From: Eledone cirrhosa
Taxonomy: Eukaryota
Length of the DNA stretch: 64,000 nucleotides
Assembly: GCA_964016885.1 (NCBI GenBank)
Contig: OZ024757.1
Coordinates: forward strand, 42,904,001 to 42,968,000
Direction: 5' to 3'
Numbering within the stretch: the stretch's first letter is position 1; each line of letters opens with the position of its first letter. The position numbers were made by a program, and so were the translations under genes. The notes beneath the pieces were generated by a model. It was not told where the DNA came from. It did no database searches and saw nothing but the letters and a program-made list of their open reading frames with translations. Positions 31,828 through 64,000 of the stretch are shown here, in pieces.

Positions 31828-31882
31828 CATATTTAGCCATTTTGAGTTATTTTAGTAATTTATGATGCAGTTTAACCATTTT
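31828..31882 (+). repeat. AT-rich island, 55-bp class
   Basis: Copy of 15389-15443. Confidence 0.92.
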
Positions 31883-35003: not shown

Positions 35004-36967
35004 GTGCCCATGCGCCAAGACCGCCAGACCGTACTGCGCACGCGCCGAGACGGCCTGATCGTAGTGCGCATGCGCCAAAGCCGCCTAACCGTAGTGCGCA
35101 TGCGCCAAGGCCGCCGATACATAGTGCACATGCGCCAAGGCCGTCGGACCATACTGCGCATGCGCCAAGGGCGCCGGACCGTTGTGCGCATGCGCCAAGG
35201 CCACCTGACTGTACTGCGCATGCGTCAAGGTCGCAGTACCGAACTGCGCATGCGCTAAGGCCGCCGGACCGTAGTGCGCATGCACCAAGGCCGCCGGACC
35301 GTTGTGCGCATGCGCAAAGAACGATGGCCCTTAGTGCGCATGCGCCAAGGCCGTCGGAACGTACTGCGCATGCGCTAAGGCCGCCGGACCTTACTGCGCA
35401 TGCGCCAAGGCCACTGGACAGTACTGCGCATGCGCCAAGGCCACCGGAACGTAGTGCGCATGCGCCAAGGCCGCCGGAACGTAGTGCGCATGCGCGAAGG
35501 CCGCCGGACCGTAGTGCGCATGCGCCAACACTGACAGACCATAGTGCGCATGCGCCAAAGCCGCCGGACCTTACTGCGCATGCGCCAAGGCCACTGGAGC
35601 GTACTGCGCATGCGCCAAGGCCACCGGAACGTAGTGCGCGCCGCCGGACCGTAGTGCGCATGCGCCAATGCTGCCAGACCGTAGTGCGCATGCACCAAAG
35701 CCGCCGGACCGTAGTGTGCAGGCGCCAAGGCCGCCGGGCCGTAGTGTGCATGCGCCAAGGCCGCCGGACCGTTGTGCGCATGCGCACTACGGTCTGGCGG
35801 CCTTGGCGCACGCGCACCACGGTCCGGCGGTCTTGGCGCATGCGCACTACGTTCCGGCGGCCTTGGCGCATGCGCAGTACGGTCCAGCGGCCTTGGCGCA
35901 TGCGCACAAAGGTACGGCGGCCTTGGCGCATGCGCACTACGTTCCGGTGGCCTTGACGCATGCGCAGTACTGTCCAGTGGCCGTGGGGCATGCGCACTAC
36001 AGTCCAGTGGCCTTGGCGCATGCGCACTAAGGGCCAGCGGTCTTTGCGCATGCGCACAACGGTACGGCGGCCTTGGCGCATGCGCACTACGTTCCGGTGG
36101 CCTTGACGCATGCGCAGTACTGTCCAGTGGCCTTGGCGCATGCGCAGTAAGGTCCGGCGGCCTTAGCGCATGCGCAGTACGTTCCGGCGGCCTTGGCGCA
36201 TGCGCACTAAGGGCCATCGTTCTTTGCGCATGCGCACAACGGTCCGGCGGCCTTGGTGCATGCGCACTACGGTCCGGCAGCCTTGGCGCATGCGCACTAC
36301 GGTCCGGCGGCTTTGGTGCATGCGCACTACGGTCTAGCAGCATTGGGGCATGCGCACTACAGCCCGGCGGCCTTGGCGCATGCGCAGTACGGCCCGGCGA
36401 CCTTGGCGCATGCGCACTACGGTCTGGCGGCCTTGGCGCACGCGCACCACGGTCCGGCGGTCTTGGCGCATGCGCACTACGGTCCGGCGACCTTGCCGCA
36501 TGCGCACTACGTTCCGGTGGCCTTGGCACATGCGCAGTACGGTCCGGTGGCTTTAGCGCATTCGTACTACGGTCTGGCAGACTTGGCGCATGCGCACTAC
36601 GGTCCGATGGCATTGGCGCGTGCGCACTACGGTCCAGTGGCCTTGGCGCATGCGCACAACGGTCCGGCGGCCTTGGCGCATGCGCACTACGGTCCGGCAG
36701 CTTTGGTGCATGCGCACTACGGTCTGGCAGCATTGGCGCATGCGCACTACGGTCCGGCGGCCTTGGCGCATGCGCAGTACGGCCCGGCGGCCTTGGCGCA
36801 TGTGCACTACGGTCTGGCGGCCTTCGCGCATGCGCACTACGGTCCGGCGGCCTTGGCGCATGCGCACTACGGTCCGGCGGCGTTGGCGCATGCGCACTAC
36901 GGTTCGGAGGCCTTGGCGCATGCGCACGACGGTCCGAAGTCCTTGACGCATGTGCAGTACGGTCCGG

Positions 36968-37233
36968 ATGACTTTTTAGCCATTTTAAGCCTTTATGTTG
37001 CCATATTTAGCCATTTTGAGTTATTTTAGAAATTTATGATGCAGTTTAACCATTTTAGAGCCATTTATAGTCATTTTAGACGTTTCAGTCGTGTTAGAGT
37101 CATTCTAGTCAATTATGATACGGTTTTAGCATTTTATTGTCACTTTAGGCATTTATTATGCCGTCTTAGCCATTTTGTTGTAATTTCAGACATACATGAT
37201 GACATTTCGGCCATGTTAGTCCTTTTTGATGAC
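36968..37233 (+). repeat. AT-rich island, 266-bp class
   Basis: Copy of 34738-35003. Confidence 0.92.
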
Positions 37234-43200: not shown

Positions 43201-44431
43201 ACCTTACTGCGCATGCGCTAAGGCCGCCGGACCTTACTGCGCATGCGCCAAGGCCACTGGACTGTAGTGCGCATGCCCCACGGCCACTGGACAGTACTGC
43301 GCATGCGTCAAGGCCACCGGAACGTAGTGCGCATGCGCCAAGGCCGCCGTACCTTTGTGCGCATGCGCCAAGGCCGCTGGACCGTACTGCGCATGCGCCA
43401 AGGCCGCCGGAACGTAGTGCGCATGCGCCAAGGCCGCCGGACCGTAGTGCGCATGCGCCAAGGCTGCCAGACCGTAGTGCGCATGCGCCAAAGCCGCCGG
43501 ACCGTACTGCGCATGTGCCAAGGCCACCGGAACGTAGTGCGCATGCGGGAAGGTCGCCGGACCGTAGTGCGCATGCGCCAAGGCCGCCGAACCGCATGCG
43601 CACAAAGGTCCGGCAGCCTTGGCGCATGCGCAGTACGGTTCGGCGGCCTTGGCGCATGCGCACTACGGTCTGGCGGCCTTGGCACATGCGCACTACGGTC
43701 CGACGGCCTTGGGGCATGCGCAGTAAGATCCGGCGGTCTTGGAGCATGCGCACTACGGTCTGGCGGCCTTGGCACATGCGCACTACTGTCCGACGGCCTT
43801 GGGGCATGCGCAGTACGATCCGGCGGTCTTGGATCATGCGCAGTACCGTCCCGTGGCCTTGGCGCATGCGCACTACGGTCCAGCTGCTTTGGCGCATGCG
43901 CAGTACGGTTCGGCGGCCTTAGCGCATGCGCACTACGGTCCGGAGGGCTTGGCGCATGCGCAGTATGGTCCGGCGACCTTGACGCAGGCGCACTACGGTT
44001 CGGCGGCTCTGGCGCATGCGCACTGCGGTCCGGCGGCCTTGGCGCATGCGCAGTACGGTCCGGCGGCCTTAGCGCATGCGCAGTTCGGTACTGGGACCTT
44101 GACGCATGCGCAGTACAGTCAGTCGGTCTTGGCGCATGCGCACTATGGTCCGGCGGCCTTGGCGCATGCGCAGTACGGTTCGGCGGCTTTGGCGCATGCG
44201 CACTACGGTCCGGCGGCCTTGGCACATGCGCAGTACGGTCCGGCGGCCTTAACGCATGCGTAGTTCGGTACTGCGACCTTGACGCATGCGCAGTACAGTC
44301 AGGCGGCCTTGGCGCATGCGCAGTACGGTCCGGCGGCCTTAGCGCATGCGCAGTTCGGTACTGCGACCTTGACGCATGCGCAGTACAGTCAGGTGGCCTT
44401 GGCGCATGCGCAGTACGGTCCGGCGGCCTTG

Positions 44432-44486
44432 AAAATGGTTAAACTGCATCATAAATTACTAAAATAACTCAAAATGGCTAAATATG
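44432..44486 (-). repeat. AT-rich island, 55-bp class (reverse complement)
   Basis: AAAATGGTTAAACTGCATCATAAATTACTAAAATAACTCAAAATGGCTAAATATG; still at an F-to-R switch. Confidence 0.92.
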
Positions 44487-47400
44487 GACTGTACTGCGCA
44501 TGCGCCAAGTCCACCAGGACGTAGTGCGCATGCGCCAAGGCCATCGGACCGTAGTGCGCATGCGCCAAGTCTGCCAGACCGTAGTGCGCATGCGCCAAAG
44601 CCACCGAACCGTACTGCGCATGTGCCAAGGCCACCGGAACGTAGTGCGCATGCGGCAAGGTCGCCGGACCGTAGTGCGCATGCGCCAAGACCGACGGACC
44701 GTAGTGCGCGTGCGCCAAGGCCGCCAGACCGTAGTGCGCATGCGCCAAGGTCGCCGGGCCGTACTGCGCATGCGCCAAGGCCGCCGGGCTGTAGTGCGCA
44801 TGCCCCAATGCTGCTAGACCGTAGTGCGCATGCACCAAAGCCACCGGACCGTAGTGCGCATGCGCCAAGGCTGCCGGACCGTAGTGCGCATGCACCAAGG
44901 CCGCCGGACCGTTGTGCGCATGCGCAAAGAACGATGGCCATCTTAGTGAGCATGCGCCAAGGCCGCCGGAACGTACTGCGCATGCGCTAAGGCCGCCGGA
45001 CCTTACTGCGCATGCGCCAAGGCCACTGGACAGTACTGCGCATGCGTCAAGGCCACCAGAACGTAGTGCGCATGCGCCAAGGCCGCCGTACCGTTGTGCG
45101 CATGCGCAAAGACCGCTGGCCCTTAGTGCGCATGCGCCATGGCCGCCGGACCTTACTGCGCATGCGCCAAGGCCACTGGACTGTCGTGCGCATGCCCCAA
45201 GGCCACTGGACAGTACTGCGCATGCGTCAAGGCCACCGGGCCGTAGTGCGCATGCGCCAAGGCCGCCGTACCGTTGTGCGCATGCGCCAAGGCCGCTGGA
45301 CCGTACTGCGCATGCGCAAAGGCCACCGGAACGTAGTGCGCATGCGCCAAGGCCGCCGGAACGTAGTGCGCATGCGCCAAGGCCGCCGGACCGTAGTGCG
45401 CATGCGCCAAGACTGACAGACCATAGTGCGCATGCGCCAAAGCCGCCGGACCTTACTGCGCATGCGCCAAGGCCACTGGAGCGTACTGCGCATGCGCCAA
45501 GGCCACCGGAAAGTAGTGCGCATGCGCCAAGGGCGCCGGACCGTAGTGCGCATGCGCCAAGGCTGCCAGACCGTAGTGCGCATGCGCCAAGGCCGCCAGA
45601 CCGTAGTGCGCATGCTCCAAGACCGCCGGATCCTACTGCGCATGCCCCAAGGCCGTCGGACCGTAGTGCGCATGTGCCAAGGCCGCCAGACCGTAGTGCG
45701 CATGCGCCAAGGCCGCCGAACCGTACTGCGCATGCGCCAAGGCCGCCGGACCTTTGTGCGCATGCGGTTCGGCGGCCTTGGCGCATGCGCACTACGGTCC
45801 GGCGAGCTTCCCGCATGCGCACTACGTTCCGGCGGCTTTGGCGCATGCGCCCTACGGTCTGGCAGCCTTGGCGCATGCGCACTACGGTCCGGCGGCCTTG
45901 GCGCATGCGCACTACGTTCCGGTGGCCTTGGCGCATGCGCAGTACGCTCCAGTGGCCTTGGCGCATGCGCAGTAAGGTCCGGCGGCTTTGGCGCATGCGT
46001 ACTATGGTCTGTCAGTCTTGGCGCATGCGCACTACGGTCCGGCGGCCTTGGCGCATGCGCACTACGTTCCGGCGGCCTTGGCGCATGCGCACTACGTTCC
46101 GGTGGCCTTTGCGCATGCGCAGTACGGTCCAGCGGCCTTGGCGCATGCGCACAACGGTACGGCGGCCTTGGCGCATGCGCACTACGTTCCGGTGGCCTTG
46201 ACGCATGCGCAGTACTGTCCAGTGGCCTTGGGGCATGCGCACTACAGTCCGGTGGCCTTGGCGCATGCGCAGTAAGGTCCGGCGGCCATGGCGCATGCGC
46301 ACTAAGGGCCAGCGGTCTTTGCGCATGCGCACAACGGTACAGCGGCCTTGGCGCATGCGCACTACGTTCTGGTGGCCTTGACGCATGCGCAGTACTGTCC
46401 AGTGGCCTTGGCGCATGCGCAGTAAGGTCCGGCGGCCTTAGCGCATGCGCAGTACGTTCCGGCGGCCTTGGCGCATGCGCACTACGGTTCGGCGGCTCTG
46501 GCGCATGCGCACTACGGTCCGGCGGTCTTGGTGCATGCGCAGTAAGGTACTGCGGACTTGGCGCATGCGCAGTACGGTCAGGCGGCTTTGGCCCATGCGC
46601 ACTACGGTCCGGCGGGCTTGGCGCATGCGCAGTATGGTCCGGCGACCTTGACGCATGCGCACTACGGTTCGGCGGCTCTGGCGCATGCGCACTGCGGTCC
46701 GGCGGCCTTGGCGCATGCGCAGTACGGTCCGGCGGCCTTAGCGCATGCGCAGTTCGGTACTGGGACCTTGACGCATGCGCAGTACAGTCAGGCGGCCTTG
46801 GCGCATGCGCACTACGGTCCGGCGGCCTTGGCGCATGCGCAGTACGGTCCGGCGGCCTTAACGCATGCGCAGTTCGGTACTGCGACCTTGACGCATGCGC
46901 AGTACAGTCAGGCGGCCTTGGCGCATGCGCATTACGATCCGGCGGCCTTAGCGCATGCGCAGTTAAGTACTGCGACCTTGACGCATGCGCAGTACAGTCA
47001 GGTGGCCTTGGCGCATGCGCACTACGGGCCCGCGTCTTTGGCGCATGCGCACTACGGTCCGGCGGCCTTGGCGCATGCGCAGTATGGTCCGGCGGCCTTG
47101 GCGCATGCGCACTACGGTTCGGCGGCTCTGGCGCATGCGCACTACGGTCCGGCGGTCTTGGTGCATGCGCAGTACGGTACTGGGACTTTGATGCATGCGC
47201 AGTACAGTCAGGCGGCCTTGGCGCATGCGCACTACGGTCCGGCGGCCTTGGCGCATGCGCAGTACGGTGCGCAAAGAACGATGGCCCTTAGTGCGCATGC
47301 GCCAAGGCCGCCGGAACGTACTGCGCATGCGCTAAGGCCGCCGGACCTTACTGCGCATGCGCCAAGGCCACTGGACAGTACTGCGCATGCGTCAAGGCCA

Positions 47401-49079
47401 CCGGAACGTAGTGCGCATGCGCCAAGGTTGCCGTACCATTGTGCGCATGCGCAAAGACCGCTGGCCCTTAGTGCGCATGCGCCATGGCCGCCAGACCTTA
47501 CTGCGCATGCGCTAAGGCCGCCGGGCCTTACTGCGCATGCGCCAAGGCCACTGGACTGTATTGTACAGGCGCCAAGGCCAGCAGGACGTAGTGCGCATGC
47601 GCCAAGGCCATCGGACCGTAGTGCGCATGCGCCAAAGCCACCGGACCGTACTGCGCATGTGCCAAGGCCACCGGAACGTAGTGCGCATGCGGCAAGGTCG
47701 CCGGACCGTAGTGCGCATGCGCCAAGACCGCCGGACCGTGGTGCGCCAAGGCCGCCAGACCGTAGTGCGCATGCGCCAAGGTCGCCGGGCCGTACTGCGC
47801 ATGCGCCAAGGCCGCCGGGCTGTAGTGCGCATGCCCCAATGCTGCTAGACCGTAGTGCGCATGCACCAAAGCCGCCGGACCGTAGTGCGCATGCGCCAAG
47901 GCTGCCGGACCGTAGTGCGCATGCACCAAGGCCGCCGGACCGTTGTGCGCATGCGCAAAGAACGATGGCCCTTAGTGCGCATGCGCCAAGGCCGCCGGAA
48001 CGTACTGCGCATGCGCTAAGGCCGCCGGACCTTACTGCGCATGCGCCAAGGCCACTGGACAGTACTGCGCATGCGCCAAGGCCGCCGGAACGTAGTGCGC
48101 ATGCGCCAAGGCCGCCGGACCGTAGTGCGCATGCGCCAAGGCTGCCAGACCGTAGTGCGCATGCGCCAAAGCCGCCGGACCGTACTGCGCATGTGCCAAG
48201 GCCACCGGAACGTAGTGCGCATGCGGGAAGGTCGCCGGACCGTAGTGCGCATGCGCCAAGGCCGCCGAACCGCATGCGCACAAAGGTCCGGCAGCCTTGG
48301 CGCATGCGCAGTACGGTTCGGCGGCCTTGGCGCATGCGCACTACGGTCTGGCGGCCTTGGCACATGCGCACTACGGTCCGACGGCCTTGGGGCATGCGCA
48401 GTAAGATCCGGCGGTCTTGGAGCATGCGCACTACTGTCCGACGGCCTTGGGGCATGCGCAGTACGATCCGGCGGTCTTGGATCATGCGCAGTACCGTCCC
48501 GTGGCCTTGGCGCATGCGCACTACGGTCCAGCTGCTTTGGCGCATGCGCAGTACGGTTCGGCGGCCTTAGCGCATGCGCACTACGGTCCGGAGGGCTTGG
48601 CGCATGCGCAGTATGGTCCGGCGACCTTGACGCAGGCGCACTACGGTTCGGCGGCTCTGGCGCATGCGCACTGCGGTCCGGCGGCCTTGGCGCATGTGCA
48701 GTACGGTCCGGCGGCCTTAGCGCATGCGCAGTTCGGTACTGGGACCTTGACGCATGCGCAGTACAGTCAGTCGGTCTTGGCGCATGCGCACTATGGTCCG
48801 GCGGCCTTGGCGCATGCGCAGTACGGTTCGGCGGCTTTGGCGCATGCGCACTACGGTCCGGCGGCCTTGGCACATGCGCAGTACGGTCCGGCGGCCTTAA
48901 CGCATGCGTAGTTCGGTACTGCGACCTTGACGCATGCGCAGTACAGTCAGGCGGCCTTGGCGCATGCGCAGTACGGTCCGGCGGCCTTAGCGCATGCGCA
49001 GTTCGGTACTGCGACCTTGACGCATGCGCAGTACAGTCAGGTGGCCTTGGCGCATGCGCAGTACGGTCCGGCGGCCTTG

Positions 49080-49134
49080 AAAATGGTTAAACTGCATCAT
49101 AAATTACTAAAATAACTCAAAATGGCTAAATATG
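49080..49134 (-). repeat. AT-rich island, 55-bp class (reverse complement)
   Basis: Copy of 44432-44486. Confidence 0.92.
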
Positions 49135-52100
49135 GACTGTACTGCGCATGCGCCAAGTCCACCAGGACGTAGTGCGCATGCGCCAAGGCCATCGGACCGT
49201 AGTGCGCATGCGCCAAGTCTGCCAGACCGTAGTGCGCATGCGCCAAAGCCACCGGACCGTACTGCGCATGTGCCAAGGCCACCGGAACGTAGTGCGCATG
49301 CGGCAAGGTCGCCGGACCGTAGTGCGCATGCGCCAAGACCGCCGGACCGTAGTGCGCGTGCGCCAAGGCCGCCAGACCGTAGTGCGCATGCGCCAAGGTC
49401 GCCGGGCCGTACTGCGCATGCGCCAAGGCCGCCGGGCTGTAGTGCGCATGCCCCAATGCTGCTAGACCGTAGTGCGCATGCACCAAAGCCACCGGACCGT
49501 AGTGCGCATGCGCCAAGGCTGCCGGACCGTAGTGCGCATGCACCAAGGCCGCCGGACCGTTGTGCGCATGCGCAAAGAACGATGGCCATCTTAGTGAGCA
49601 TGCGCCAAGGCCGCCGGAACGTACTGCGCATGCGCTAAGGCCGCCGGACCTTACTGCGCATGCGCCAAGGCCACTGGACAGTACTGCGCATGCGTCAAGG
49701 CCACCAGAACGTAGTGCGCATGCGCCAAGGCCGCCGTACCGTTGTGCGCATGCGCAAATACCGCTGGCCCTTAGTGCGCATGCGCCATGGCCGCCGGACC
49801 TTACTGCGCATGCGCCAAGGCCACTGGACTGTAGTGCGCATGCCCCAAGGCCACTGGACAGTACTGCGCATGCGTCAAGGCCACCGGGCCGTAGTGCCCA
49901 TGCGCCAAGGCCGCCGTACCGTTGTGCGCATGCGCCAAGGCCGCTGGACCGTACTGCGCATGCGCAAAGGCCACCGGAACGTAGTGCGCATGCGCCAAGG
50001 CCGCCGGAACGTAGTGCGCATGCGCCAAGGCCGCCGGACCGTAGTGCGCATGCGCCAAGACTGACAGACCATAGTGCGCATGCGCCAAAGCCGCCAGACC
50101 TTACTGCGCATGCGCCAAGGCCACTGGAGCGTACTGCGCATGCGCCAAGGCCACCGGAAAGTAGTGCGCATGCGCCAAGGGCGCCGGACCGTAGTGCGCA
50201 TGCGCCAAGGCTGCCAGACCGTAGTGCGCATGCGCCAAGGCCGCCAGACCGTAGTGCGCATGCTCCAAGACCGCCGGATCTTACTGCGCATGCCCCAAGG
50301 CCGTCGGACCGTAGTGCGCATGTGCCAAGGCCGCCAGACCGTAGTGCTCATGCGCCAAGGCCGCCGAACCGTACTGCGCATGCGCCAAGGCCGCCGGACC
50401 TTTGTGCGCATGCGGTTCGGCGGCCTTGGCGCATGCGCACTACGGTCCGGCGACCTTCCCGCATGCGCACTACGTTCCGGCGGCTTTGGCGCATGCGCAC
50501 TACGGTCTGGCAGCCTTGGCGCATGCGCACTACGGTCCGGCGGCCTTGGCGCATGCGCACTACGTTCCGGTGGCCTTGGCGCATGCGCAGTACGCTCCAG
50601 TGACCTTACTGCGCATGCGCCAAGGCCACTGGACAGTACTGCGCATGCGTCAAGGCCACCGGAACGTAGTGCGCATGCGCCAAGGTTGCCGTACCATTGT
50701 GCGCATGCGCAAAGACCGCTGGCCCTTAGTGCGCATGCGCCATGGCCGCCGGACCTTACTGCGCATGCGCTAAGGCCGCCGGGCCTTACTGCGCATGCGC
50801 CAAGGCCACTGGACTGTATTGTGCAGGCGCCAAGGCCAGCAGGACGTAGTGCGCATGCGCCAAGGCCATCGGACCGTAGTGCGCATGCGCCAAGTCTGCC
50901 AGACCGTAGTGCGCATGCGCCAAAGCCACCGGACCGTACTGCGCATGTGCCAAGGCCACCGGAACGTAGTGCGCATGCGGCAAGGTCGCCGGACCGTAGT
51001 GCGCATGCGCCAAGACCGCCGGACCGTGGTGCGCGTGCGCCAAGGCCGCCAGACCGTAGTGCGCATGCGCCAAGGTCGCCGGGCCGTACTGCGCATGCGC
51101 CAAGGCCGCCGGGCTGTAGTGCGCATGCCCCAATGCTGCTAGACCGTAGTGCGCATGCACCAAAGCCGCCGGACCGTAGTGCGCATGCGCCAAGGCTGCC
51201 GGACCGTAGTGCGCATGCACCAAGGCCGCCGGACCGTTGTGCGCATGCGCAAAGAACGATGGCCCTTAGTGCGCATGCGCCAAGGCCGCCGGAACGTACT
51301 GCGCATGCGCTAAGGCCGCCGGACCTTACTGCGCATGCGCCAAGGCCACTGGACAGTACTGCGCATGCGTCAAGGCCACCGGAACGTAGTGCGCATGCGC
51401 CAAGGCCGCCGTACCGTTGTGCGCATGCGCAAAGACCGCTGGCCCTTAGTGCGCATGCGCCATGGCCGCCGGACCTTACTGCGCATGCGCTAAGGCCGCC
51501 GGACCTTACTGCGCATGCGCCAAGGCCACTGGACTGTAGTGCGCATGCCCCACGGCCACTGGACAGTACTGCGCATGCGTCAAGGCCACCGGAACGTAGT
51601 GCGCATGCGCCAAGGCCGCCGTACCTTTGTGCGCATGCGCCAAGGCCGCTGGACCGTACTGCGCATGCGCCAAGGCCGCCGGAACGTAGTGCGCATGCGC
51701 CAAGGCCGCCGGACCGTAGTGCGCATGCGCCAAGGCTGCCAGACCGTAGTGCGCATGCGCCAAAGCCGCCGGACCGTACTGCGCATGTGCCAAGGCCACC
51801 GGAACGTAGTGCGCATGCGGGAAGGTCGCCGGACCGTAGTGCGCATGCGCCAAGGCCGCCGAACCGCATGCGCACAAAGGTCCGGCAGCCTTGGCGCATG
51901 CGCAGTACGGTTCGGCGGCCTTGGCACATGCGCACTACGGTCCGACGGCCTTGGGGCATGCGCAGTAAGATCCGGCGGTCTTGGAGCATGCGCACTACGG
52001 TCTGGCGGCCTTGGCACATGCGCACTACTGTCCGACGGCCTTGGGGCATGCGCAGTACGATCCGGCGGTCTTGGATCATGCGCAGTACCGTCCCGTGGCC

Positions 52101-52673
52101 TTGGCGCATGCGCACTACGGTCCAGCTGCTTTGGCGCATGCGCAGTACGGTTCGGCGGCCTTAGCGCATGCGCACTACGGTCCGGAGGGCTTGGCGCATG
52201 CGCAGTATGGTCCGGCGACCTTGACGCAGGCGCACTACGGTTCGGCGGCTCTGGCGCATGCGCACTGCGGTCCGGCGGCCTTGGCGCATGTGCAGTACGG
52301 TCCGGCGGCCTTAGCGCATGCGCAGTTCGGTACTGGGACCTTGACGCATGCGCAGTACAGTCAGTCGGTCTTGGCGCATGCGCACTATGGTCCGGCGGCC
52401 TTGGCGCATGCGCAGTACGGTTCGGCGGCTTTGGCGCATGCGCACTACGGTCCGGCGGCCTTGGCACATGCGCAGTACGGTCCGGCGGCCTTAACGCATG
52501 CGTAGTTCGGTACTGCGACCTTGACGCATGCGCAGTACAGTCAGGCGGCCTTGGCGCATGCGCAGTACGGTCCGGCGGCCTTAGCGCATGCGCAGTTCGG
52601 TACTGCGACCTTGACGCATGCGCAGTACAGTCAGGTGGCCTTGGCGCATGCGCAGTACGGTCCGGCGGCCTTG

Positions 52674-52728
52674 AAAATGGTTAAACTGCATCATAAATTA
52701 CTAAAATAACTCAAAATGGCTAAATATG
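52674..52728 (-). repeat. AT-rich island, 55-bp class (reverse complement)
   Basis: Copy of 49080-49134 at offset 3594. Confidence 0.92.
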
Positions 52729-55570
52729 GACTGTACTGCGCATGCGCCAAGTCCACCAGGACGTAGTGCGCATGCGCCAAGGCCATCGGACCGTAGTGCG
52801 CATGCGCCAAGTCTGCCAGACCGTAGTGCGCATGCGCCAAAGCCACCGGACCGTACTGCGCATGTGCCAAGGCCACCGGAACGTAGTGCGCATGCGGCAA
52901 GGTCGCCGGACCGTAGTGCGCATGCGCCAAGACCGCCGGACCGTAGTGCGCGTGCGCCAAGGCCGCCAGACCGTAGTGCGCATGCGCCAAGGTCGCCGGG
53001 CCGTACTGCGCATGCGCCAAGGCCGCCGGGCTGTAGTGCGCATGCCCCAATGCTGCTAGACCGTAGTGCGCATGCACCAAAGCCACCGGACCGTAGTGCG
53101 CATGCGCCAAGGCTGCCGGACCGTAGTGCGCATGCACCAAGGCCGCCGGACCGTTGTGCGCATGCGCAAAGAACGATGGCCATCTTAGTGAGCATGCGCC
53201 AAGGCCGCCGGAACGTACTGCGCATGCGCTAAGGCCGCCGGACCTTACTGCGCATGCGCCAAGGCCACTGGACAGTACTGCGCATGCGTCAAGGCCACCA
53301 GAACGTAGTGCGCATGCGCCAAGGCCGCCGTACCGTTGTGCGCATGCGCAAATACCGCTGGCCCTTAGTGCGCATGCGCCATGGCCGCCGGACCTTACTG
53401 CGCATGCGCCAAGGCCACTGGACTGTAGTGCGCATGCCCCAAGGCCACTGGACAGTACTGCGCATGCGCAAAGGCCACCGGAACGTAGTGCGCATGCGCC
53501 AAGGCCGCCGGAACGTAGTGCGCATGCGCCAAGGCCGCCGGACCGTAGTGCGCATGCGCCAAGACTGACAGACCATAGTGCGCATGCGCCAAAGCCGCCA
53601 GACCTTACTGCGCATGCGCCAAGGCCACTGGAGCGTACTGCGCATGCGCCAAGGCCACCGGAAAGTAGTGCGCATGCGCCAAGGGCGCCGGACCGTAGTG
53701 CGCATGCGCCAAGGCTGCCAGACCGTAGTGCGCATGCGCCAAGGCCGCCAGACCGTAGTGCGCATGCTCCAAGACCGCCGGATCTTACTGCGCATGCCCC
53801 AAGGCCGTCGGACCGTAGTGCGCATGTGCCAAGGCCGCCAGACCGTAGTGCGCATGCGCCAAGACCGACTGACTGTACTGCGCATGTGTCATCGTCGCAG
53901 TACCGCACTGCGCATGCGGTAAGGCCGCCGGACCGTACTGCGCATGCGCCAAGGCCGCCGGACCGTAGTGCGCAGGCGCCAAGGCCGCCGGACCGTAGTG
54001 CGCATGCACCAAGGCCGCCTGAGTGTACTGCGCATGCATCAAGGTCCCAGTACCGTACTGCGCATGCGCAAAGGCCGCCGGACAGTAGTGCGCATGCGCC
54101 AGAGCCGCCGAACCGTAGTGCGCATGCGCCAAGGCCGTCGGACCGTAGTGCGCATGGGCCAAAGCCGCCCGACCGTACTGCGCATGCGCTAAGTCCGTAG
54201 TACCGTACTGCGCATGCTACAAGGCCGCAGTACCGTACTGCGCATGCGACAAGGCCGCAGTACCGTAGTGCGCATGCGCCAAGGCCACCGGACCGTAGTG
54301 CGCATGAGCCAAGGCCGCCGGACCGTACTGCGCATGCGCCAAGCCCGCCGGACCGTAGTGCGCATGCGCCAAGGCCGCCTGACTGTACTGCGCATGCGCC
54401 AAGGCCGCCTGACTGTACTGCGCATGCGTCAAGGTCCCAGTACCGAACTGCGCATGCGCTAAGGCCACCGGACCGTACTGCGCATGCGCCAAGGCCGCCG
54501 GACCGTAGTGCGCATGCGCCAGAGCCGCCGAACCCTGGTGTGCATGCGCCAAGGCCGCCGGACCATACTGCACATGCGCCAAAGCCACCTGACTGTACTG
54601 CGCATGTGCCAAGGCCGCCTGACTGTACTGCGCATGCGACAAGGCCGCCAGACCGTAGTGCGCATGCGCCAAGGCCACCTAACTGTACTGCGCATGCGTC
54701 AAGGTCGCAGTACCGAACTGCGCATGCGCCAAGGCCGCCGGACCGTACTGCGCATGCGCCAAGGCCGCCGGACCGTAGTGCGCATGCGCCAAAGCCGCCG
54801 AACCGTAGTGCGCATGCGCCAAGGCCGCCGGACCATACTGCGCACGCATGCGCGCGGCCGCAGGACCGTAGTGCGCATGCGCCAAGGCCGCCTGGTTGTA
54901 CTGCGCATGCGCCAAGGCCGCCGGACCGTAGTGCGCATGCGCCAAGGCCGCCTGACTGTACTGCGCATGCGTCAAGGCCGCAGTACCGAACTGCGTATGG
55001 GCTAAGGCCGCCGGACCGTACTGCGCATGCGCCAAGGCCGCCGGACCGTAGTGCGCATGCGCCAAGGCCGCCGGACCGTAGTGCGCCTGCGCCAAGGCCG
55101 CCTAACTGTACTGCGCATGCGTTAAATCGCAGTACCGAACTGCGCATGCGCCAAGGCCGCCGGACCGTACTGCGAATGCGCCAAGGCCGCCGGACCGTAG
55201 TGCGCATGCGCCAAAGCCGCCGAACCGTAGTGCGCATGCGCCAAGGCCGCCGGACCATACTGCGCACGCATGCGCCGCGGCCGCAGGACCGTAGTGCGCA
55301 TGCGCCAAGGCCGCCTGGTTGTACTGCGCATGCGCCAAGGCCGCCGGACCGTAGTGCGCATGCGCCAAGGCCGCCTGACTGTACTGCGCATGCGTCAAGG
55401 CCGCAGTACCGAACTGCGTATGGGCTAAGGCCGCCGGACCGTACTGCGCATGCGCCAAGGCCGCCGGACCGTAGTGCGCATGCGCCAAGGCCGCCGGACC
55501 ATACTGCGCATGCGCCAAGGCCGCCAGACCGTAGTGCGCATGCGCCAAGGCCGCCTAACTGTACTGCGCA

Positions 55571-55600
55571 TGCGCACTACGGTCCGGCGGCCTTGGCGCA
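55571..55600 (+). other. Single inverted 30-bp monomer bounded by two palindrome axes inside an R block
   Basis: ...GTACTGCGCA|TGCGCACTACGGTCCGGCGGCCTTGGCGCA|TGCGCTAAGGCC...; no bases gained or lost. Confidence 0.9.
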
Positions 55601-57438
55601 TGCGCTAAGGCCGCCGGACCGTACTGCGCATGCGCCAATGCCGCCGGACCGTAGTGCGCATGCGCCAAAGCCGCCGGACCGTAGTGCGCATGCGCCAAGG
55701 CCGCCTGGTTGTACTGCGCATGCGCCAAGGCCGCCGGATCGTAGTGCGCATGCGCCAAGGCCGCCTGACTGCACTGCGCATGCGTCAAGGCCGCAGTACC
55801 GAACTGCGTATGGGCTAAGGCCGCCGGACCGTACTGCGCATGCGCCAAGGCCGCCGGACCGTAGTGCGCATGCGTCAAGGTCGCAGTACCGAACTGCGCA
55901 TGCGCTAAGGCCGCCGGACCGTACTGCGCATGCGCCAAGGCCGCCGGACCGTAGTGCGCATGTGCCAAAGCCGCCGAACCGTAGTGCGCATGCGCCAAGG
56001 CCGCCTAACTGTACTGCGCATGCGTCAAGGTCGCAGTACCGAACTGCGCATGCGCCAAGGCCGCCGGACCGTACTGCGAATGCGCCAAAGCCGCCGAACC
56101 GTAGTGCGCATGCGCCAAGGCCGCCGGACCATACTGCGCACGCATGCCGCGGTCGCAGGACCGTAGTGCGCATGCGCCAAGGCCGCCTGGTTGTACTGCG
56201 CATGCGCCAAGGCCGCCGGACCGTAGTGCGCATGCGCCAAGGCCGCCTGACTGTACTGCGCATGCGTCAAGGCCGCAGTACCGAACTGCGTATGGGCTAA
56301 GGCCGCCGGACCGTACTGCGCATGCGCCAAGGCCGCCGGACCATACTGCGCATGCGCCAAGGCCGCCGGACCGTAGTGCGCATGCGCCAAGGCCGCCTAA
56401 CTGTACTGCGCATGCGTCAAGGTCGCAGTACCGAACTGCGCATGCGCTAAGGCCGCCGGACCGTACTGCGCATGCGCCAAGGCCGCGGGACCGTAGTGCG
56501 CATGCGCCAAAGCCGCCGGACCGTAGTGCGCATGCGCCAAGGCCGCCGGATCGTAGTGCGCATGCGCCAAGGCCGCCTGACTGTACTGCGCATGCGTCAA
56601 GGCCGCAGTACCGAACTGCGTATGGGCTAAGGCCGCCGGACCGTACTGCGCATGCGCCAAGACCGCCGGACCGTAGTGCGCATGCGTCAAGGTCGCAGTA
56701 CCGAACTGCGCTTGCGCTAAGGCCGCCGGACCGTACTGCGCATGCGCCAAGGCCGCCGGACCGTAGTGCTCATGCGCCAAAGCCGCCGAACCGTAGTGCG
56801 CATGCGCCAAGGCCGCCGGACCAGAGTGCGCATGCGCCAAGGCCGCCGGACCGTAGTGCGCATGCGCCAAGGCCGCCGGACCGTAGTGCGCATGCGCCAA
56901 GGCCGCCTGACCGTAGTGCGCATGCGTCAAGGCCGCAGTACCGAACTGCGTATGGGCTAAGGCCGCCGGACCGTACTGCGCATGCGCCAAGGCCGCCGGA
57001 CCGTACTGCGCATGCGCCAAGGCCGCCGGACCATACTGCGCATGCGCCAAGGCCGCCGTACAGCGCACTACGGTCTGGCATCATTGGCGCATGCGCACTA
57101 CGGCCCGGCGGCCTTGGCGCATGCGCAGTACGGCCCGGCAACCTTGGCGTATGCGCACTACGGTCTGTCGGCCTTGGCGCATGCGCACTACTGTCCGGCG
57201 GCCTTGGCGCATGCGCAGTACGGTCCAGCGGCCTTGACGCATGCGCACTACGGTTCGGCGGCCTTGGCGCATGCGTACAACGGTCCGGCGGCCTTGGCGC
57301 ATGCGCACTACGGTCTGGCAGCATTGGCGCATGCGCACTACGGTCCGCCGTCCTTGGCGCATGCGCACTACGGTCCGCCGTCCTTGGCGCATGCGCACTA
57401 CGGTCCGACGTCCTTGGCGCATGTGCAGTACGGTCCGG

Positions 57439-58017
57439 ATGACTTTTTAGCCATTTTAAGCCTTTATGTTGCCATATTTAGCCATTTTTGAGTCATTTTA
57501 GTAATTTATGATGCAGTTTTTACCATTTTAGAGCCATTTATAGTCATTTTAGACGTTTCAGTCGTGTTAGAGTCATTCTAGTCAATTATGATACGGTTTT
57601 AGCATTTTAGTCGTTGATGATGACGTTTTAGTCATTTATGATGCAGATTCAGCCATTCTGTTGTAATATGGCAACATAAATGATTAAATGGCCCTAAAAT
57701 GGCTAAAACAGCATCATATTTGACAAAAGTGACTCGTAAATGAGTAAAACGGTATCATAAATGACTAAAATAACTCTAGAAAGGCTACTACAGCATCATA
57801 AATGATTAAAATGACTCTAAAACGACTAAAACGTCTAAAATGACAAAAATGGCTTTAATATAGCTTAAACTGCATCTTAAATGACTAAAACTACTAAAAT
57901 GACTCCGAAATGGCTAAAATGACACTAAAGTGGCTAAAACGGACTGTTAAATTGCTAAATTGTCTCTAAAATGGCTAAAACGTCTTCATAAATAAATAAA
58001 ATGGCTAAAACGTGGGT
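57439..58017. repeat. Long AT-rich island (579 bp), internally an imperfect inverted repeat of degenerate ~10-bp units
   Basis: T-rich left arm and A-rich right arm switch near 57663. 57543-57577 matches the reverse complement of 57810-57844 at 33/35; 57463-57478 is the exact reverse complement of 57665-57680. Confidence 0.9.
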
Positions 58018-61000
58018 GCCGGACCGTAGTGCGCATGCGCCAAGGCCGCCGGACCGTAATGCGCATGCGCCAAGGCCGCCGGATCGTAGTGCGCATGCGC
58101 CAAGGCCGACTGACTGTACTGCGCATGTGTCATCGTCGCAGTACCGAACTGCGCATGCGGTAAGGCCGCCGGACCGTACTGCGCATGCGCCAAGGCCGCC
58201 GGACCGTAGTGCGCAGGCGCCAAGGCCGCCGGACCGTAGTGCGCATGCACCAAGGCCGCCTGAGTGTACTGCGCATGCATCAAGGTCCCAGTACCGTACT
58301 GCGCAAAGGCCGCCGGACAGTAGTGCGCATGCGCCAGAGCCGCCGAACCGTAGTGCGCATGCGCCAAGGCCGCCCGACCGTAGTGCGCATGGGCCAAAGC
58401 CGCCCGACCGTACTGCGCATGCGCTAAGTCCGTAGTACCGTACTGCGCATGCTACAAGGCCGCAGTACCGTACTGCGCATGCGACAAGGCCGCAGTACCG
58501 TAGTGCGCATGCGCCAAGGCCACCGGACCGTAGTGCGCATGAGCCAAGGCCGCCGGACCGTACTGCGCATGCGCCAAGCCCGCCGGACCGTAGTGCGCAT
58601 GCGCCAGAGCCGCCGAACCGTGGTGCACATGCGCCAAGCCCGCCGGACCGTAGTGCGCATGCGCCAAGCCCGCCGGACCGTAGTGCGCATGCGCCAAGGC
58701 CGCCTGACTGTACTGCGCATGCGTCAAGGTCCCAGTACCGAACTGCTCATGCGCTAAGGCCACCGGACCGTACTGCGCATGCGCCAAGGCCGCCGGACCT
58801 TAGTGCGCATGCGCCAGAGCCGCCGAACCGTGGTGTGCATGCGCCAAGGCCGCCGGACCATACTGCGCATGCGCCAAAGCCGCCTGACTGTACTGCGCAT
58901 GCGCCAAGGCCGCCTGACTGTACTGCGCATGCGACAAGGCCGCCGGACCGTTGTGCGCATGCGCCAAGGCCACCTAAATGTACTGCGCATGGTCGCAGTA
59001 CCGAACTGCGCATGCGCCAAGGCCGCCGGACCGTACTGCGAATGCGCCAAGGCCGCCGGACCGTAGTGCGCATGCGCCAAAGCCGCCGAACCGTGGTGCA
59101 CATGCGCCAAGCCCGTCGGACCGTAGTGCGCATGCGCCAAGCCCGCCGGACCGTAGTGCGCATGCGCCAAGGCCGCCTGACTGTACTGCGCATGCGTCAA
59201 GGTCCCAGTACCGAACTGCGCATGCGCTAAGGCCACGGGACCGTACTGCGCATGCGCCAAGGCCGCCGGACCGTTGTGCGCATGCGCCAGAGCCGCCGAA
59301 CCGTGGTGTGCATGCGCCAAGGCCACCGGACCATACTGCGCATGCGCCAAAGCCGCCTGACTGTACTGCGCATGCGCCAAGGCCGCCTGACTGTACTGCG
59401 CATGCGACAAGGCCGCCGGACCGTAGTGCGCATGCGCCCAAGCCGCCGGACCATACTGCGCATGCGCCAAGGCCGCCGGACCGTAGTGCGCATGCGTCAA
59501 GGCCGCAGTACCGAACTGCGCATGCGCTAAGGCCGCAGTACCGAACTGCGCATGCGCTAAGGCCGCAGTACCGAACTGCGCATGCGCCAAGGCCGCCGGA
59601 CCGTACTGCGCATGCGCCAAGGACGCCGGACCGTAGTGCGCAGGCGCCAAAGACGCCGGACCGTAGTGCGCATGCGCCAAAGACGCCGAACAGTCGTGCC
59701 CATGCGCCAAGACCGCCGGACCGTACTGCGCATGCGCCAAGGCCGCTGAACCGTACTGCGCATGCCCCAAAGCCGCCGACCCGTAGTGCGCATGCACCAA
59801 GGCCACCGGACCGTACTGCGCATGCTCCAAGACCGTCGGACCGTAGTGCGCATGCCCCAAGGCCGTCGGACCGTAGTGCGCATGCGCCAATGCCGCCAGA
59901 CCGTAGTGCGCATACGCCAAGGCCGCCGAACCGTACTGCGCATGCGCCAAGGCCGCCGAACCGCACTGCGCATGCGCCAAGGCCGCCGAACCGTACTGCG
60001 CATGCGCCAAGGCCGCCGAACCGTACTGCGCATGCGCCAAAGCCGCTGGACCGTAGTGCGCATGCGCCAAGGCCACTGGACCGTACTGCGCATGTACCAA
60101 GGCCGCCGTCGTAGTGCGCATGCGCCAATGCCGCCGGACCTTTGTGCGCATGCGGTACGGTGGCCTTGGCGCATGCGCACTAAGGTCTAACGGCCTTGGC
60201 GCATGCGCACTACGGTTCGGCGGCTTTGACGCACACGGACTACGTTCCGTCAGATTTGGCGCACGCACACTACGGTCCGGCGGTCTTGGCGCATGCGCAC
60301 TACGGTCCGGCGACCACGCCGCATGCGCACTACGTTCCGGTGGCCTTGGCACATGCGCAGTACCGTCCGGCGGCTTTTGCGCATGCGCACTACGGTCTGG
60401 CAGCCTTGGCGCATGCGCACTACGGTCCAGCGGCCTTGGCGCATGCGCACTACGTTCCGGTGGCCTTGGCGCATGCGCAGTACGGTCCAGTGGCCTTGGC
60501 GCATGCGTAGTAAGGTCCGGCGCCCTTAGCGCATGCGCAGTACGGTCCGGCAGCCTTGGCGCATGCGCACTAAGGGCCAGCGGTCTTTGCGCATGCGCAC
60601 AACGGTCCGGTGGCCTTGGCGCATGCGCACTACGGTCCGGCGGCCTTGGCGCATGCGCACTAAGGTCCGGCGGCTTTGGTGCATGCGCACTACGGTCTGG
60701 CATCATTGGCGCATGCGCACTACGGTCCGGCGGCCTTGGCGCATGCGCAGTACGGCTGGCAACCTTGGCGTATGCGCACTACGGTCTGTCGGCCTTGGCG
60801 CATGCGCACTACTGTCCGGCGGCCTTGGCGTATGCGCAGTACGGTCCAGCGGCCTTGGCGCATGCGCACTACGGTTCGGCGGCCTTGGCGCATGCGCACT
60901 ACGGTTCGGCGGCCTTGGCGCATGCGTACAACGGTCCGGCGGCCTTGGCGCATGCGCACTACGGTCTGGCAGCATTTGCGCATGCGCACTAAGGTCCGGC

Positions 61001-61089
61001 GGCCTTGGCGCATGCGCACTACGGTCCGACGTCCTTGGCGCATGCGCACTACGGTCCGACGTCCTTGGCGCATGTGCAGTACGGTCCGG
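57439..61089. mobile_element. Possible foldback-like ancestral unit (AT island + R array + J1 + F array, ~3.65 kb), non-autonomous; speculative
   Basis: Modular inverted arrays of short tandem repeats resemble foldback-type elements, and the unit repeats at offset 3651. No transposase, defined terminus or target-site duplication is seen. Confidence 0.25.
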
Positions 61090-61690
61090 ATGACTTTTTG
61101 GCCATTTTAAGCCTTTATGTTGCCATATTTAGCCATTTTTGAGTCATTTTAGTAATTTATGATGCAGTTTTTACCATTTTAGAGCCATTTATAGTCATTT
61201 TAGACGTTTCAGTCGTGTTAGAGTCATTCTAGTCAATTATGATACGGTTTTAGCATTTTAGTCGTTGATGATGACGTTTTAGTCATTTATGATGCAGTTT
61301 CAGCCATTCTGTTGTAATATGGCAACATAAATGATTAAATGGCCCTAAAATGGCTAAAACAGCATCATATTTGACAAAAATGACTCGTAAATGAGTAAAA
61401 CGGTATCGTAAATGACTAAAATAACTCTAGAAAGGCTACTACAACATCATAAATGATTAAAATGACTCTAAAACGACTAAAACGTCTAAAATGACAAAAA
61501 TGGCTTTAATATAGCTTAAACTGCATCTTAAATGACTAAAACTACTAAGATGACTCCGAAATGGCTAAAAAAAACATCATAAATGGCTAAAATGACACTA
61601 AAGTGGCTAAAACGGACTGTTAAATTGCTAAATTGTCTCTAAAATGGCTAAAACGTCTTCATAAATAAATAAAATGGCTAAAACGTGGGT
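61090..61690. repeat. Long AT-rich island (601 bp), second copy
   Basis: Near-identical to 57439-58017 with 22 extra bp near 61571-61592, lying between two AAATGGCTAAAA direct repeats. Confidence 0.9.
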
Positions 61691-64000
61691 GCCGGACCGT
61701 AGTGCGCATGCGCCAAGGCCGCCGGACCGTAATGCGCATGCGCCAAGGCCGCCGGACCGTAGTGCGCATGCGCCAAGACCGACTGACTGTACTGCGCATG
61801 TGTCATCGTCGCAGTACCGCACTGCGCATGCGGTAAGGCCGCCGGACCGTACTGCGCATGCGCCAAGGCCGCCGGACCGTAGTGCGCAGGCGCCAAGGCC
61901 GCCAGACCGTAGTGCGCATGCACCAAGGCCGCCTGAGTGTACTGCGCATGCATCAAGGTCCCAGTACCGCACTGCGCATGCGCAAAGGCCGCCGGACAGT
62001 AGTGCGCATGCGCCAGAGCCGCCGAACCGTAGTGCGCATGCGCCAAGGCCGCCGGACCGTAGTGCGCATGGGCCAAAGCCGCCCGACCGTACTGCGCATG
62101 CGCTAAGTCCGTAGTACCGTACTGCGCATGCTACAAGGCCGCAGTACCGTACTGCGCATGCGACAAGGCCGCAGTACCGTAGTGCGCATGCGCCAAGGCC
62201 ACCGGACCGTAGTGCGCATGAGCCAAGGCCGCCGGACCGTACTGCGCATGCGCCAAGCCCGCCGGACCGTAGTGCGCATGCGCCAGAGCCGCCGAACCGT
62301 GTTGCACATGCGCCAAGCCCGCCGGACCGTAGTGCGCATGCGCCAAGGCCGCCGGACCATACACCGCATGCGCCAAGGCCGCCGGACCATACTCCGCATG
62401 CGCCAAGGCCGCCGGACCGTTGTGCGCATGCGCCAAGGCCGCCTGACGACTGCGCATGCGTCAAGGTCGCAATACCGAACTGCGCATGCGCTAAGGCCGG
62501 CGGACCGTAGTGCGCATTCGCCAAGGCCGCCGGACCGTAGTGCGCATTCGCCAAGGCCGCCGGACCGTAGTGCGCATGCGCCAAGGCCGCCGGACCGTAG
62601 TGCGCATGCGCCAAGGCCGCCTAACTGTACTGCGCATGCGTCAAGGTCGCAGTACCGAACTGCGCATGCGCTAAGGCCGCCGGACCGTACTGCGCATGCG
62701 CCAAGGCCGCCGGACCGTAGTGCGCATGCGCCAAAGCCGCCGAACCGTAGTGCGCATGCGCCAAGGTCGCCGGACCTGACTGCGCATGCGCCGCGGCCGC
62801 CGGACCGTACTGCGCATGCCCCAAGGCCGTCTGGTTGTACTGCGCATGCCCCAAGGCTGCCTGGTTGTACTGCTAATGCCCCAAGGCCGCCCGACCGTAG
62901 TGCGCATGCGACAAGGCCGCCTGACCGTAGTGCGCATGCGCCAAGGCCGCCGGACCGTAGTGCGCATGCGTCAAGGTCGCAGTACCGAACTGCGCATGCG
63001 CTAAGGCCGCCGGACCGAACTGCGTATGGGCTAAGGCCGCCGGACCGTACTGCGCATGCGCCAAAGCCGCCGGACCGTAGTGCGCATGCGTCAAGGTCGC
63101 AGTACCGAACTGCGCATGCGCTAAGGCCGCCGGACCGTACTGCGCATGCGCCAAGGCCGCCGGACCGTACTGCGCATACCCCAAGGCCGCCTGGTTGTAC
63201 TGCGCATGCCCCAAGGCCGCCCGACCGTAGTGCGCATGCGCCAAAGCCGCCGAACCGTAGTGCGCATGCGCCAAGGCCGCCTAACTGTACTGCGCATGCG
63301 TCAAGGTCGCAGTACCGAACTGCGCATGCGCCAAGGCCGCCGGACCGTACTGCGAATGCGCCAAGGCCGCCGGACCGTAGTGCGCATGCGCCAAAGCCGC
63401 CGAACCGTAGTGCGCATGCGCCAAGGCCGCCGGACCATACTGCGCACGCATGCGCCGCGGCCGCAGGACCGTAGTGCGCATGCGCCAAGGCCGCCTGGTT
63501 GTACTGCGCATGCGCCAAGGCCGCCGGACCGTAGTGCGCATGCGCCAAGGCCGCCTGACTGTACTGCGCATGCGTCAAGGCCGCAGTACCGAACTGCGTA
63601 TGGGCTAAGGCCGCCGGACCGTACTGCGCATGCGCCAAGGCCGCCGGACCGTAGTGCGCATGCGCCAAGGCCGCCGGACCATACTGCGCATGCGCCAAGG
63701 CCGCCGGACCGTAGTGCGCATGCGCCAAGGCCGCCTAACTGTACTGCGCATGCGTCAAGGTCGCAGTACCGTACTGCGCATGCGCCAAGGCCGCCGAACC
63801 GTACTGCGCATGCGCCAAGGCCGCCGAACCGTACTGCGCATGCGCCAAGGCCGCCGAACCGTACTGCGCATGCGCCAAAGCCGCCGAACCGTAGTGCGCA
63901 TGCGCCAAAGCCGCTGGACCGTAGTGCGCATGCGCCAAGGCCACTGGACCGTACTGCGCATGTACCAAGGCCGCCGTCGTAGTGCGCATGCGCCAAGGCC

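Follow-up and report, generated by a model that had tools for sequence, protein, structure and literature searches.

What turns a single unit of a satellite round while its neighbours on either side keep their direction? We address this question for one 30-bp unit in Eledone cirrhosa, within a window of 64,000 nucleotides (contig OZ024757.1 of GCA_964016885.1, positions 42,904,001 to 42,968,000), by which we mean the whole stretch of DNA analysed. The window is satellite throughout and lacks coding context.

1..64000, no strand assigned: host array, a 30-bp GC-rich satellite whose unit consists of a 20-bp spacer and a palindromic core

In these 64 kb we detected 1989 monomers, arranged in 50 blocks of alternating orientation with 49 junctions, the median block measuring about 1.2 kb. 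Forward-to-reverse switches belong in 20 of 24 cases to a single 43-bp class (0–4 mismatches to the first of them; 11 in one orientation and 9 in the other). Nested pieces of an AT-rich repeat, about 41 bp long, are present at 15 of the 25 switches from reverse to forward. The array resembles the macro-dyad symmetries of Tribolium satellites (PMC13081366; see also PMC12581902), which have alternating subarrays, few and highly conserved types of inversion site, and a minor satellite embedded at transitions; it differs in its 30-bp GC-rich unit, its short blocks and its 49 switches per 64 kb. Organisation of the Tribolium type further implies megabase (peri)centromeric extent on all chromosomes, whereas the comparison here covers 64 kb. 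Such symmetries are stated to be documented only in Tribolium (PMC13081366). A literature search found neither this satellite nor a reversed replacement unit inside any satellite described; the ‘single inverted monomer’ in excerpts of PMC3018141 is a 2.4-kb unit lying 210 kb outside its array. The alternating-orientation array is, to us, more interesting than the flip that it surrounds.

The unit under study and its neighbours comprise the following features.

55546..55565, plus strand: left neighbour spacer, a rare type that sets the higher-order context and has 7 exact copies; differs from the reversed unit at 4 positions
55566..55575, no strand assigned: left core, a perfect 10-bp palindrome and putative first switch point, with 9-bp microhomology; its probable pre-event form is an imperfect variant ending in T
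55576..55595, minus strand: reverse-oriented 20-bp spacer; read on the other strand, it is identical to the spacer type found most often (114 of 1989 monomers)
55596..55605, no strand assigned: right core, a perfect palindrome and putative return switch point, with 10-bp microhomology
55606..55625, plus strand: right neighbour spacer, with 58 copies, 55 of them after a type-8-like monomer; differs from the reversed unit at 2 positions

Both cores flanking the reversed spacer read GCGCATGCGC. The surrounding run, from 52748 to 57037 (4.3 kb), otherwise has one orientation and keeps its 30-bp register. When few-monomer inversions were counted over this window, the reversed unit proved to be the only block of three or fewer monomers among the 50, the next smallest holding 7; a second single- or few-monomer reversal was sought in the 64 kb and none was found. 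Each of the two 50-bp junction strings occurs once in the window with both strands scanned, and an 8-mer scan for sub-monomer inversions raised 242 flags, those listed holding only 8–9-bp variant or core-edge matches and no reversed unit. The evidence thus concerns one event only, within the window.

A preliminary description had read this locus as one monomer flipped exactly between two dyad axes. A single reverse-oriented spacer is indeed present in a one-orientation run, but ‘flipped’ does not describe it, the spacer type differing from that of its slot. Both breakpoints fall within cores, but not demonstrably at the axis: the switch points may lie anywhere in 9 bp on the left, a figure that assumes an ancestral core ending in T, and anywhere in 10 bp on the right. 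Preservation of the 30-bp phase, likewise observed, adds no separate evidence because it follows from both ends lying in cores. Under uniform breakpoints, two ends in register within cores have P ~1.5e-4, a post hoc value for a site selected for this property. The suggestion that the palindromic core guided the event gains weight from a comparison of the consensus unit with its reverse complement, in which the core alone gives a match of more than 6 bp, and the same match supports template switching as a candidate.

What the slot held before can be read from its paralogs, the two nearest of which are given here; the ancestral state is drawn from such paralogs rather than from an outgroup.

56408..56447, plus strand: closest unrearranged paralog of the slot, with 3 mismatches in 180 flank bases; it holds a type-8 monomer, the probable ancestral state
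62632..62671, plus strand: second paralog of the slot, with 6 mismatches in 180; ancestral monomer as in 56408..56447

The slot differs from its nearest paralog at 19 of 40 positions, against 3 of 180 in the flanks, and the flanks hold the higher-order order for 90 bp on each side, collinear with one paralog. Wherever the left and right neighbours enclose a monomer (60 contexts), that monomer carries the type-8 motif and differs from the reversed spacer by at least 4 mismatches; the script called 59 of these type-8-like, the 60th being type-8 with a 1-bp deletion, and the copies are related rather than independent. The end of the left spacer is followed by an imperfect core in all 7 other copies. 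If the paralog’s monomer is inverted in place, 6 mismatches persist whichever of the 11 cut positions is chosen. Turned back to the normal orientation, the unit has 5 or more differences from each of the 55 paralogs with up to 8 flank mismatches. Because the paralogs of the slot hold another type and inversion of the paralog leaves these 6 mismatches, the reversed unit is, as far as paralogs preserve the earlier state, a replacement of another monomer type and not an in-place flip.

The preliminary description’s inversion of the resident monomer between adjacent cores accordingly fails, with 6 mismatches at every cut. An in-place microinversion (type 1-3-2-4) could be rescued by supposing that the commonest type had come to occupy the slot before the inversion, and precedents exist: such events make up 45% of human–chimp switch events in excerpts of PMC5453318, those of PMC8755829 document cases of 17–33 nt between inverted repeats, and inverted repeats are present here at both edges (cores at 55566 and 55596). 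The cases in PMC8755829 are also alike in size (20–30 nt) and in having edge inverted repeats of at least 8 nt, but there the resident sequence itself has been reverse-complemented, which is not the case here. The prior swap, moreover, is a kind of change seen in none of the 60 contexts and in none of the 1443 slots with a close paralog (1606 tested) by the measure of differing by at least 5 from all their paralogs, which makes this route very improbable. A correction of an old quasi-palindrome as the origin of the type-8 spacer was at chance level (2 of 123 pairs against 2.0 expected), and by the same count template-switch footprints are no commoner among monomer variants than chance predicts.

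Action of a site-specific recombinase or nuclease on the dyad axis, also raised in the preliminary description, would account for both ends lying in identical palindromic 10-mers. A conservative recombinase would, however, return the resident unit, and the reversed unit is of another type; a 30-bp loop is far below the persistence length of DNA and too small to synapse (excerpts of PMC8755829); and the all-satellite window offers no coding context. Although 1215 of 1891 cores are perfect, no more than 4 of the 49 junctions run from core to core, and recurrent use of the site is absent, with one event among 1989 monomers. We regard this explanation as exceedingly improbable.

If a replacement, from where was the new unit copied? 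Three candidate donors lie close by.

55446..55485, plus strand: candidate donor four units upstream (120 bp), forming a perfect 40-bp inverted repeat (40/40) with 55566–55605, 80 nt apart
55506..55545, plus strand: candidate donor two units upstream, 39/40, 20 nt apart; its mismatch at 55526 is absent from both nearest paralogs
55626..55665, plus strand: candidate donor two units downstream, 39/40, 20 nt apart; its mismatch at 55639 makes the spacer unique in the window

Within 110 nt, the slot has five partners in 40-bp inverted repeats, one without mismatch and four with a single mismatch, among the latter the copies of the reversed unit 60 bp away on either side. Since the nearest donors each carry one mismatch, either the donor lay at least 120 bp off or two later substitutions hit them. 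Such units are common locally (18 of 141 monomers), which weakens the reverse-complement match to nearby sequence as evidence. The adjacent units were rejected as donors, with 4 (left) and 2 (right) mismatches to the reversed unit, and a fold-back at one core’s own axis was rejected by the same differences. The event made a new inverted repeat, the donor staying in place.

The reversed unit belongs, on this comparison of sequences, probably to the wide class of copy-and-replace events through core microhomology at a fork or break. Within that class, we lean slightly towards an inverted copy of the commonest monomer made by a short-range template switch at a fork via two cores. The product is best read as a four-point template switch of type 3-2-1-4/1-4-3-2, primed by microhomology, with the cores as 9- and 10-bp landing pads. 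A polymerase would stall once 9 bases of the left core had been made, and its 3′ end would pair with another core, either within its own strand or in the opposing template, any core being able to pair with any other because each is self-complementary. One spacer and the next core would then be copied backwards (21–40 nt), which would also correct the left core to a perfect palindrome, before the strand re-annealed to the original template at its next core, leaving the length unchanged. A mirror path starting from the right-hand side would yield an identical product. As the donor is not the adjacent unit, the primer would have been core-to-core pairing rather than a hairpin at a single core’s axis. 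For a nascent strand that stops at base 9 within the left core, an equilibrium model of an arbitrary fragment gives P 0.82 that the last base pairs with an earlier core, the farther core being chosen. The zero net length change fits an in-register return.

Such events are known from humans and apes (excerpts of PMC5453318 and PMC7954356, with Ripley’s quasi-palindrome model as cited there). In those excerpts, as here, a nearby reverse-complement copy replaces resident sequence, a new inverted repeat is made and an imperfect palindrome is perfected; the making perfect of an imperfect repeat is a known signature (excerpts of PMC8755829). Types 3-2-1-4/1-4-3-2 account for 31% of human–chimp events in the excerpts of PMC5453318. 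The published events lie in unmasked, mostly unique human or ape sequence and are rarely length-neutral (5.5%), with a median copied length of 12 nt (excerpts of PMC7954356), which the copied length here exceeds. Here, by contrast, the setting is a satellite with the same 10-bp landing pad in every unit, the exchange takes in a full unit without loss of register, and more than one donor would fit.

A fork switch and snap-back break repair (SD-MMEJ, with templated inverted insertion) give an identical sequence product. The snap-back model in excerpts of PMC5728401 has a matching geometry, in which a primer repeat starts a templated inverted insertion and a microhomology closes it, and the repeats around the insert are present here as 9-bp and 10-bp core matches. 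Donors with one mismatch lie 20 nt away. It would directly explain the loss of the resident monomer, and repair via the nearest cores would also give zero net length. That process, though, needs a double-strand break and takes donors within about 30 bp, the excerpts scoring repeats up to 30 bp from the join and finding stems longer than 4 bp not used more; here the exact donor lies 80 nt from the left core with stems of 9–10 bp, and no extra monomers were deleted. Snap-back repair is on these grounds rather unlikely.

A long-range switch from a distant donor, or a remnant of two larger core-to-core inversions trimmed by unequal exchange, must also be weighed. The exact 40-mer has 43 forward and 31 other reverse copies in the window, the array is heavily shuffled, and a core-to-core block junction is known.

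35776..35785, no strand assigned: in-register core-to-core orientation junction, the sole other such junction; opens a long reverse block
38006..38015, no strand assigned: duplicate of the 35776 junction

A remnant, however, would reproduce only by coincidence two flanks collinear with one paralog across the slot, and the window holds no reverse-to-forward core junction besides the flip. We hold these origins to be decidedly improbable.

The same junctions bear on the preliminary description’s proposal that the core is the inversion site, which does not generalise to the array. Core-to-core junctions number 4 of 49 overall and 2 of 47 without the flip’s own, and those two are one duplicated event. 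Among independent junction classes other than the flip, 1 of 8 is core-to-core (P = 0.09) and 5 of 8 have one end in a core (P = 0.49), core involvement thus being at chance level. These classes were set by eye: the script’s 11 clusters had joined 768 with 7838 and 55565 with 35775/38005, which were separated by eye, and its automated microhomology calls are noisy, the 12 and 45 bp called at the flip being upper bounds with noise from unrelated variants.

Could the reversed unit be an artefact of assembly, polishing or library, such as an amplification chimera or a polishing error that put the consensus unit of a reverse block into a forward slot? In favour of this, the unit has the exact consensus sequence and is unique in the window; neither junction is crossed by any read or contig piece among those listed. 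Five runs, three from one sample, covered part of 55300–58100 in shares of 0.05–0.53; X1 and X2, whose shares are small, carry no weight as evidence. For runs X3–X6, which may not derive from the assembled individual, the 24 of 206 pieces listed over 55546–55625 include no junction-spanning piece, the longest being 40 bases (core–spacer–core). This shows nothing, because contigs drop rare variants. Contigs of X3, X4 and X5 carry the end of the left spacer continuing into an imperfect core. X5 has a low summed depth over the right spacer (22.1), which may stem from a junction contig or from an ordinary but rare variant; in X6 the depth over the left spacer is zero, and the 14 reads that change strand are what ordinary reverse blocks would give. 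Against an artefact, which we judge quite unlikely, two in-register strand switches 30 bp apart would have had to survive consensus, and the higher-order order of the flanks is intact for 90 bp on each side.

The event is probably a single instance of a known mutation class, with an ordinary mechanism and unusually clean as an example. A bolder reading, which we consider speculative and improbable, is that a self-complementary core in every unit pre-wires the satellite for strand switching: any core could prime on any other, so the array would keep spawning reversed units, which would seed the alternating two-satellite macro-dyad architecture. In that reading, the 35776 junction would be an amplified reversal and this flip a newborn. 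Before a ‘flipped monomer’ of a satellite is named an inversion, it should be compared with its paralogs. If real, the reversed unit would be a rare satellite unit whose ancestral state is readable from higher-order order, allowing the mechanism of a primary orientation change to be distinguished as copy-and-replace rather than flip. The predicted fold with the reversed unit reaches −76 to −81 kcal/mol, compared with −50 to −51 for the paralogs, and the −81.4 outlier among 160-mers is the stretch containing the flip; where folding was weak, the event, if real, would thus have created the window’s strongest predicted hairpin, a possible seed of further rearrangement.

The whole window is a GC-rich tandem repeat whose 30-bp unit combines a 10-bp palindromic core, GCGCATGCGC, with a variable 20-bp spacer, the spacer types following a fixed higher-order sequence. 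In these 64 kb, to which all counts of monomers, blocks and junctions refer, a script detected 1989 spacers (1007 R, 982 F) in 50 blocks of alternating orientation, separated by 49 junctions; of the 1891 cores in phase, 1215 match the palindrome exactly. The core equals the NRF1 binding motif as given in the accessible part of PMC11053113, and the array has more than 1200 perfect copies of this putative binding site. One unit runs against its surroundings:

55576-55595, F: reversed spacer, single, between two perfect cores
55566-55575 and 55596-55605: the perfect cores beside it, 10-bp palindromes
52748 to 57037, R: run enclosing the reversed spacer

The lone F monomer in a long R block noted in the preliminary description is thus present in the assembled sequence, as the sole block of three or fewer monomers among the 50 (the next smallest has 7), and both 50-mers at its junctions occur once in the window. 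The cores matter for this pattern, and two in-register core joins would have a probability of about 1.5e-4 under uniform breakpoints, a post hoc value. Both breakpoints do lie in cores, but the exact dyad axis is not singled out, since the switch points may fall anywhere within 9 bp at the left and 10 bp at the right. The 30-bp phase is preserved as described, which follows from the in-register core joins and adds no evidence. Overall, the observation is partly confirmed and its interpretation partly supported.

The resident monomer had been thought to have flipped in place; the displaced unit argues otherwise. In all seven other copies, the end of the left neighbour's spacer leads into an imperfect core whose last base is T and then into a spacer of type 8, the type expected here from the higher-order sequence. 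The middle unit between such left and right neighbours carries the type-8 motif in 60 of 60 contexts (related copies, not 60 independent trials), with at least 4 mismatches to the reversed spacer. Type 8 also fills the slot in its closest unrearranged paralog, 56408, whose flanks differ at 3 of 180 bases, and in the second closest, 62632; in contigs of runs X3, X4 and X5, from one sample, the left spacer likewise runs on into type 8. When the closest paralog's unit is inverted, the result still differs from the observed sequence by 6 bases, whichever of the 11 cut positions is used. The reversed spacer is the exact reverse complement of the commonest spacer type (114/1989), and turned back it differs by at least 5 bases from every one of 55 paralogs within 8 flank mismatches. 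Among 1606 slots examined for a prior same-orientation type swap, 1443 had a close paralog; none of these stood 5 or more bases from all its paralogs, and one did so by 4. Such a prior swap was thus seen in 0/1443 slots, and inversion of the resident unit is unlikely.

Type-8-like spacers (for example 54220-54249) carry two linked substitutions that complete an 8-bp perfect inverted repeat with the next core across a loop of 1 nt; an old quasi-palindrome correction fits this appearance but was rejected, its frequency across variants being not above chance. The cores of paralogs at 54840, 55262, 56136 and 63442 are lengthened to 13, 14, 12 and 14 bp by a small internal duplication, not the same in each copy, which may reflect slippage or local consensus error.

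Candidate donors of the reversed copy lie close by:

55446-55485: perfect inverted repeat of the 40-base core-spacer-core, 80 nt away, 40/40
units at 55506, 55626, 55656 and 55716: inverted repeats of core-spacer-core, 39/40

The adjoining units differ from the reversed spacer by 4 and 2 bases, so two different cores paired; a single core folding back at its own axis is excluded as primer. Two places to either side, units carry one substitution each (55526, 55639), missing from both nearest paralogs and each interrupting an otherwise perfect 40-bp hairpin; these could reflect chance, error-prone synthesis or later decay. Given their absence from the nearest paralogs, either nearest candidate is a possible donor before later change, and the donor may have been one of these two. 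A distant donor within the array is less likely but may also have served, the exact 40-mer core-spacer-core occurring in 43 R and 32 F copies in the window, the reversed unit included.

In this event, the inserted unit is unlike the displaced one and matches its neighbours, both ends lie in cores, the left core is now perfect and the net length change is zero. The core is the sole R-versus-F match longer than 6 bp in the consensus unit. A polymerase would have switched from the left core to pairing with a different core, copied a single unit in reverse and returned at the next core, a mirror path from the right being the alternative order. In the four-point model, the product corresponds to type 3-2-1-4/1-4-3-2 (PMC5453318, available portion); template switching at cores, as first proposed, is retained as a candidate, but not the 1-3-2-4 spacer inversion drawn with it. 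In the sections available of PMC8755829, template switching is known to make imperfect repeats perfect, and it is argued that a recombinase could not physically invert loops below 33 bp. Microinversion and a recombinase inversion system were each rejected by their defining tests. Great-ape template switches copy a median of 12 nt, with 5.5% of them length-neutral, according to the accessible text of PMC7954356; by comparison the copied length here is longish, and the event's neutrality is most readily explained by landing pads lying 30 bp apart. Snap-back end joining would yield an identical product (PMC5728401, in part), the sequence being alike for both. By its testable features, the event behaves as, and would be classed as, a short-range template-switch mutation.

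A predicted consequence is a stronger fold around the site than in the paralogs: -76.0 kcal/mol for the 160 bases around the reversed unit, against -50.1 and -50.8. Among 1608 160-mers (mean -44.3, sd 5.9), 55446-55605 has the lowest predicted value, -81.4, the next being -62.4.

Part of the region is present in five sequencing-run rows. On 55546-55625, among the 24 of 206 pieces listed, no piece exceeds the 40-base core-spacer-core and none crosses either junction; contig pieces omit rare variants, and the sampled individual is possibly not the assembled one. We consider an artefact quite improbable. In run X6, 38 reduced-representation reads start at 55569, the core's fourth base. This is presumably the start expected for a library enzyme cutting inside the core, and libraries so cut would sample this satellite heavily.

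The preliminary description also took the core to be the array's inversion site, which mostly does not hold. The junctions sort into a few classes, the final ones set by eye:

Class 1, R-to-F, 20 copies: core end joined to mid-spacer
Class 2, 5 copies: spacer joined to the core's axis
Class 3, 15 junctions: AT-rich insert carried
Class 4, 2 copies, 35776 and 38006: core-to-core
Single cases, 5: 768, 7838, 17376, 50608 and 57037
Remaining two: both ends of the reversed-unit event

In-register core-to-core junctions number just 4/49. With the AT-rich group and the reversed-unit event omitted, they make up one of eight independent classes (P=0.094); one end lies in a core in 5/8 (P=0.49) and both ends in 2/8 (P=0.22). 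With eight classes giving little power, a modest core bias may exist. A few old junctions, amplified, account for most orientation changes, and more reversals between present R and F blocks would require no new one. By eye, the F-to-R junction at 50601-50620, bordering a short reverse block of 7 monomers, seems to rely on spacer-spacer similarity of about 7 bp, not on a core.

Blocks have a median length of 1220 bp. Of 24 R-to-F switches, 20 share a single conserved 43-bp junction, found 11 times in one orientation and 9 in the other. At 15 of 25 F-to-R switches there are nested pieces of a second, AT-rich repeat with a unit of about 41 bp; these measure about 54, 230, 265 and 580-600 bp, and the long form is in turn a diverged inverted dyad:

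57447-58010 and 61098-61683: long pieces
near 4166, 13322, 15370, 19942, 21990, 24537 and 26585: shorter nested pieces
near 31809, 34746, 36976, 44432, 49080 and 52674: further shorter nested pieces

In the literature searched, which lacked most subscription papers, no description turned up of this satellite or of a comparable replacement within any satellite. Macro-dyad satellites of Tribolium likewise have conserved inversion sites and a minor satellite embedded in them, and the available part of PMC13081366 states this organisation to be documented in that genus only. That palindromic cores form a built-in generator of both reversed units and macro-dyad arrays seems doubtful. The array's likeness to the Tribolium macro-dyads, which the reversed unit does not establish, is a more interesting lead than the reversed unit.
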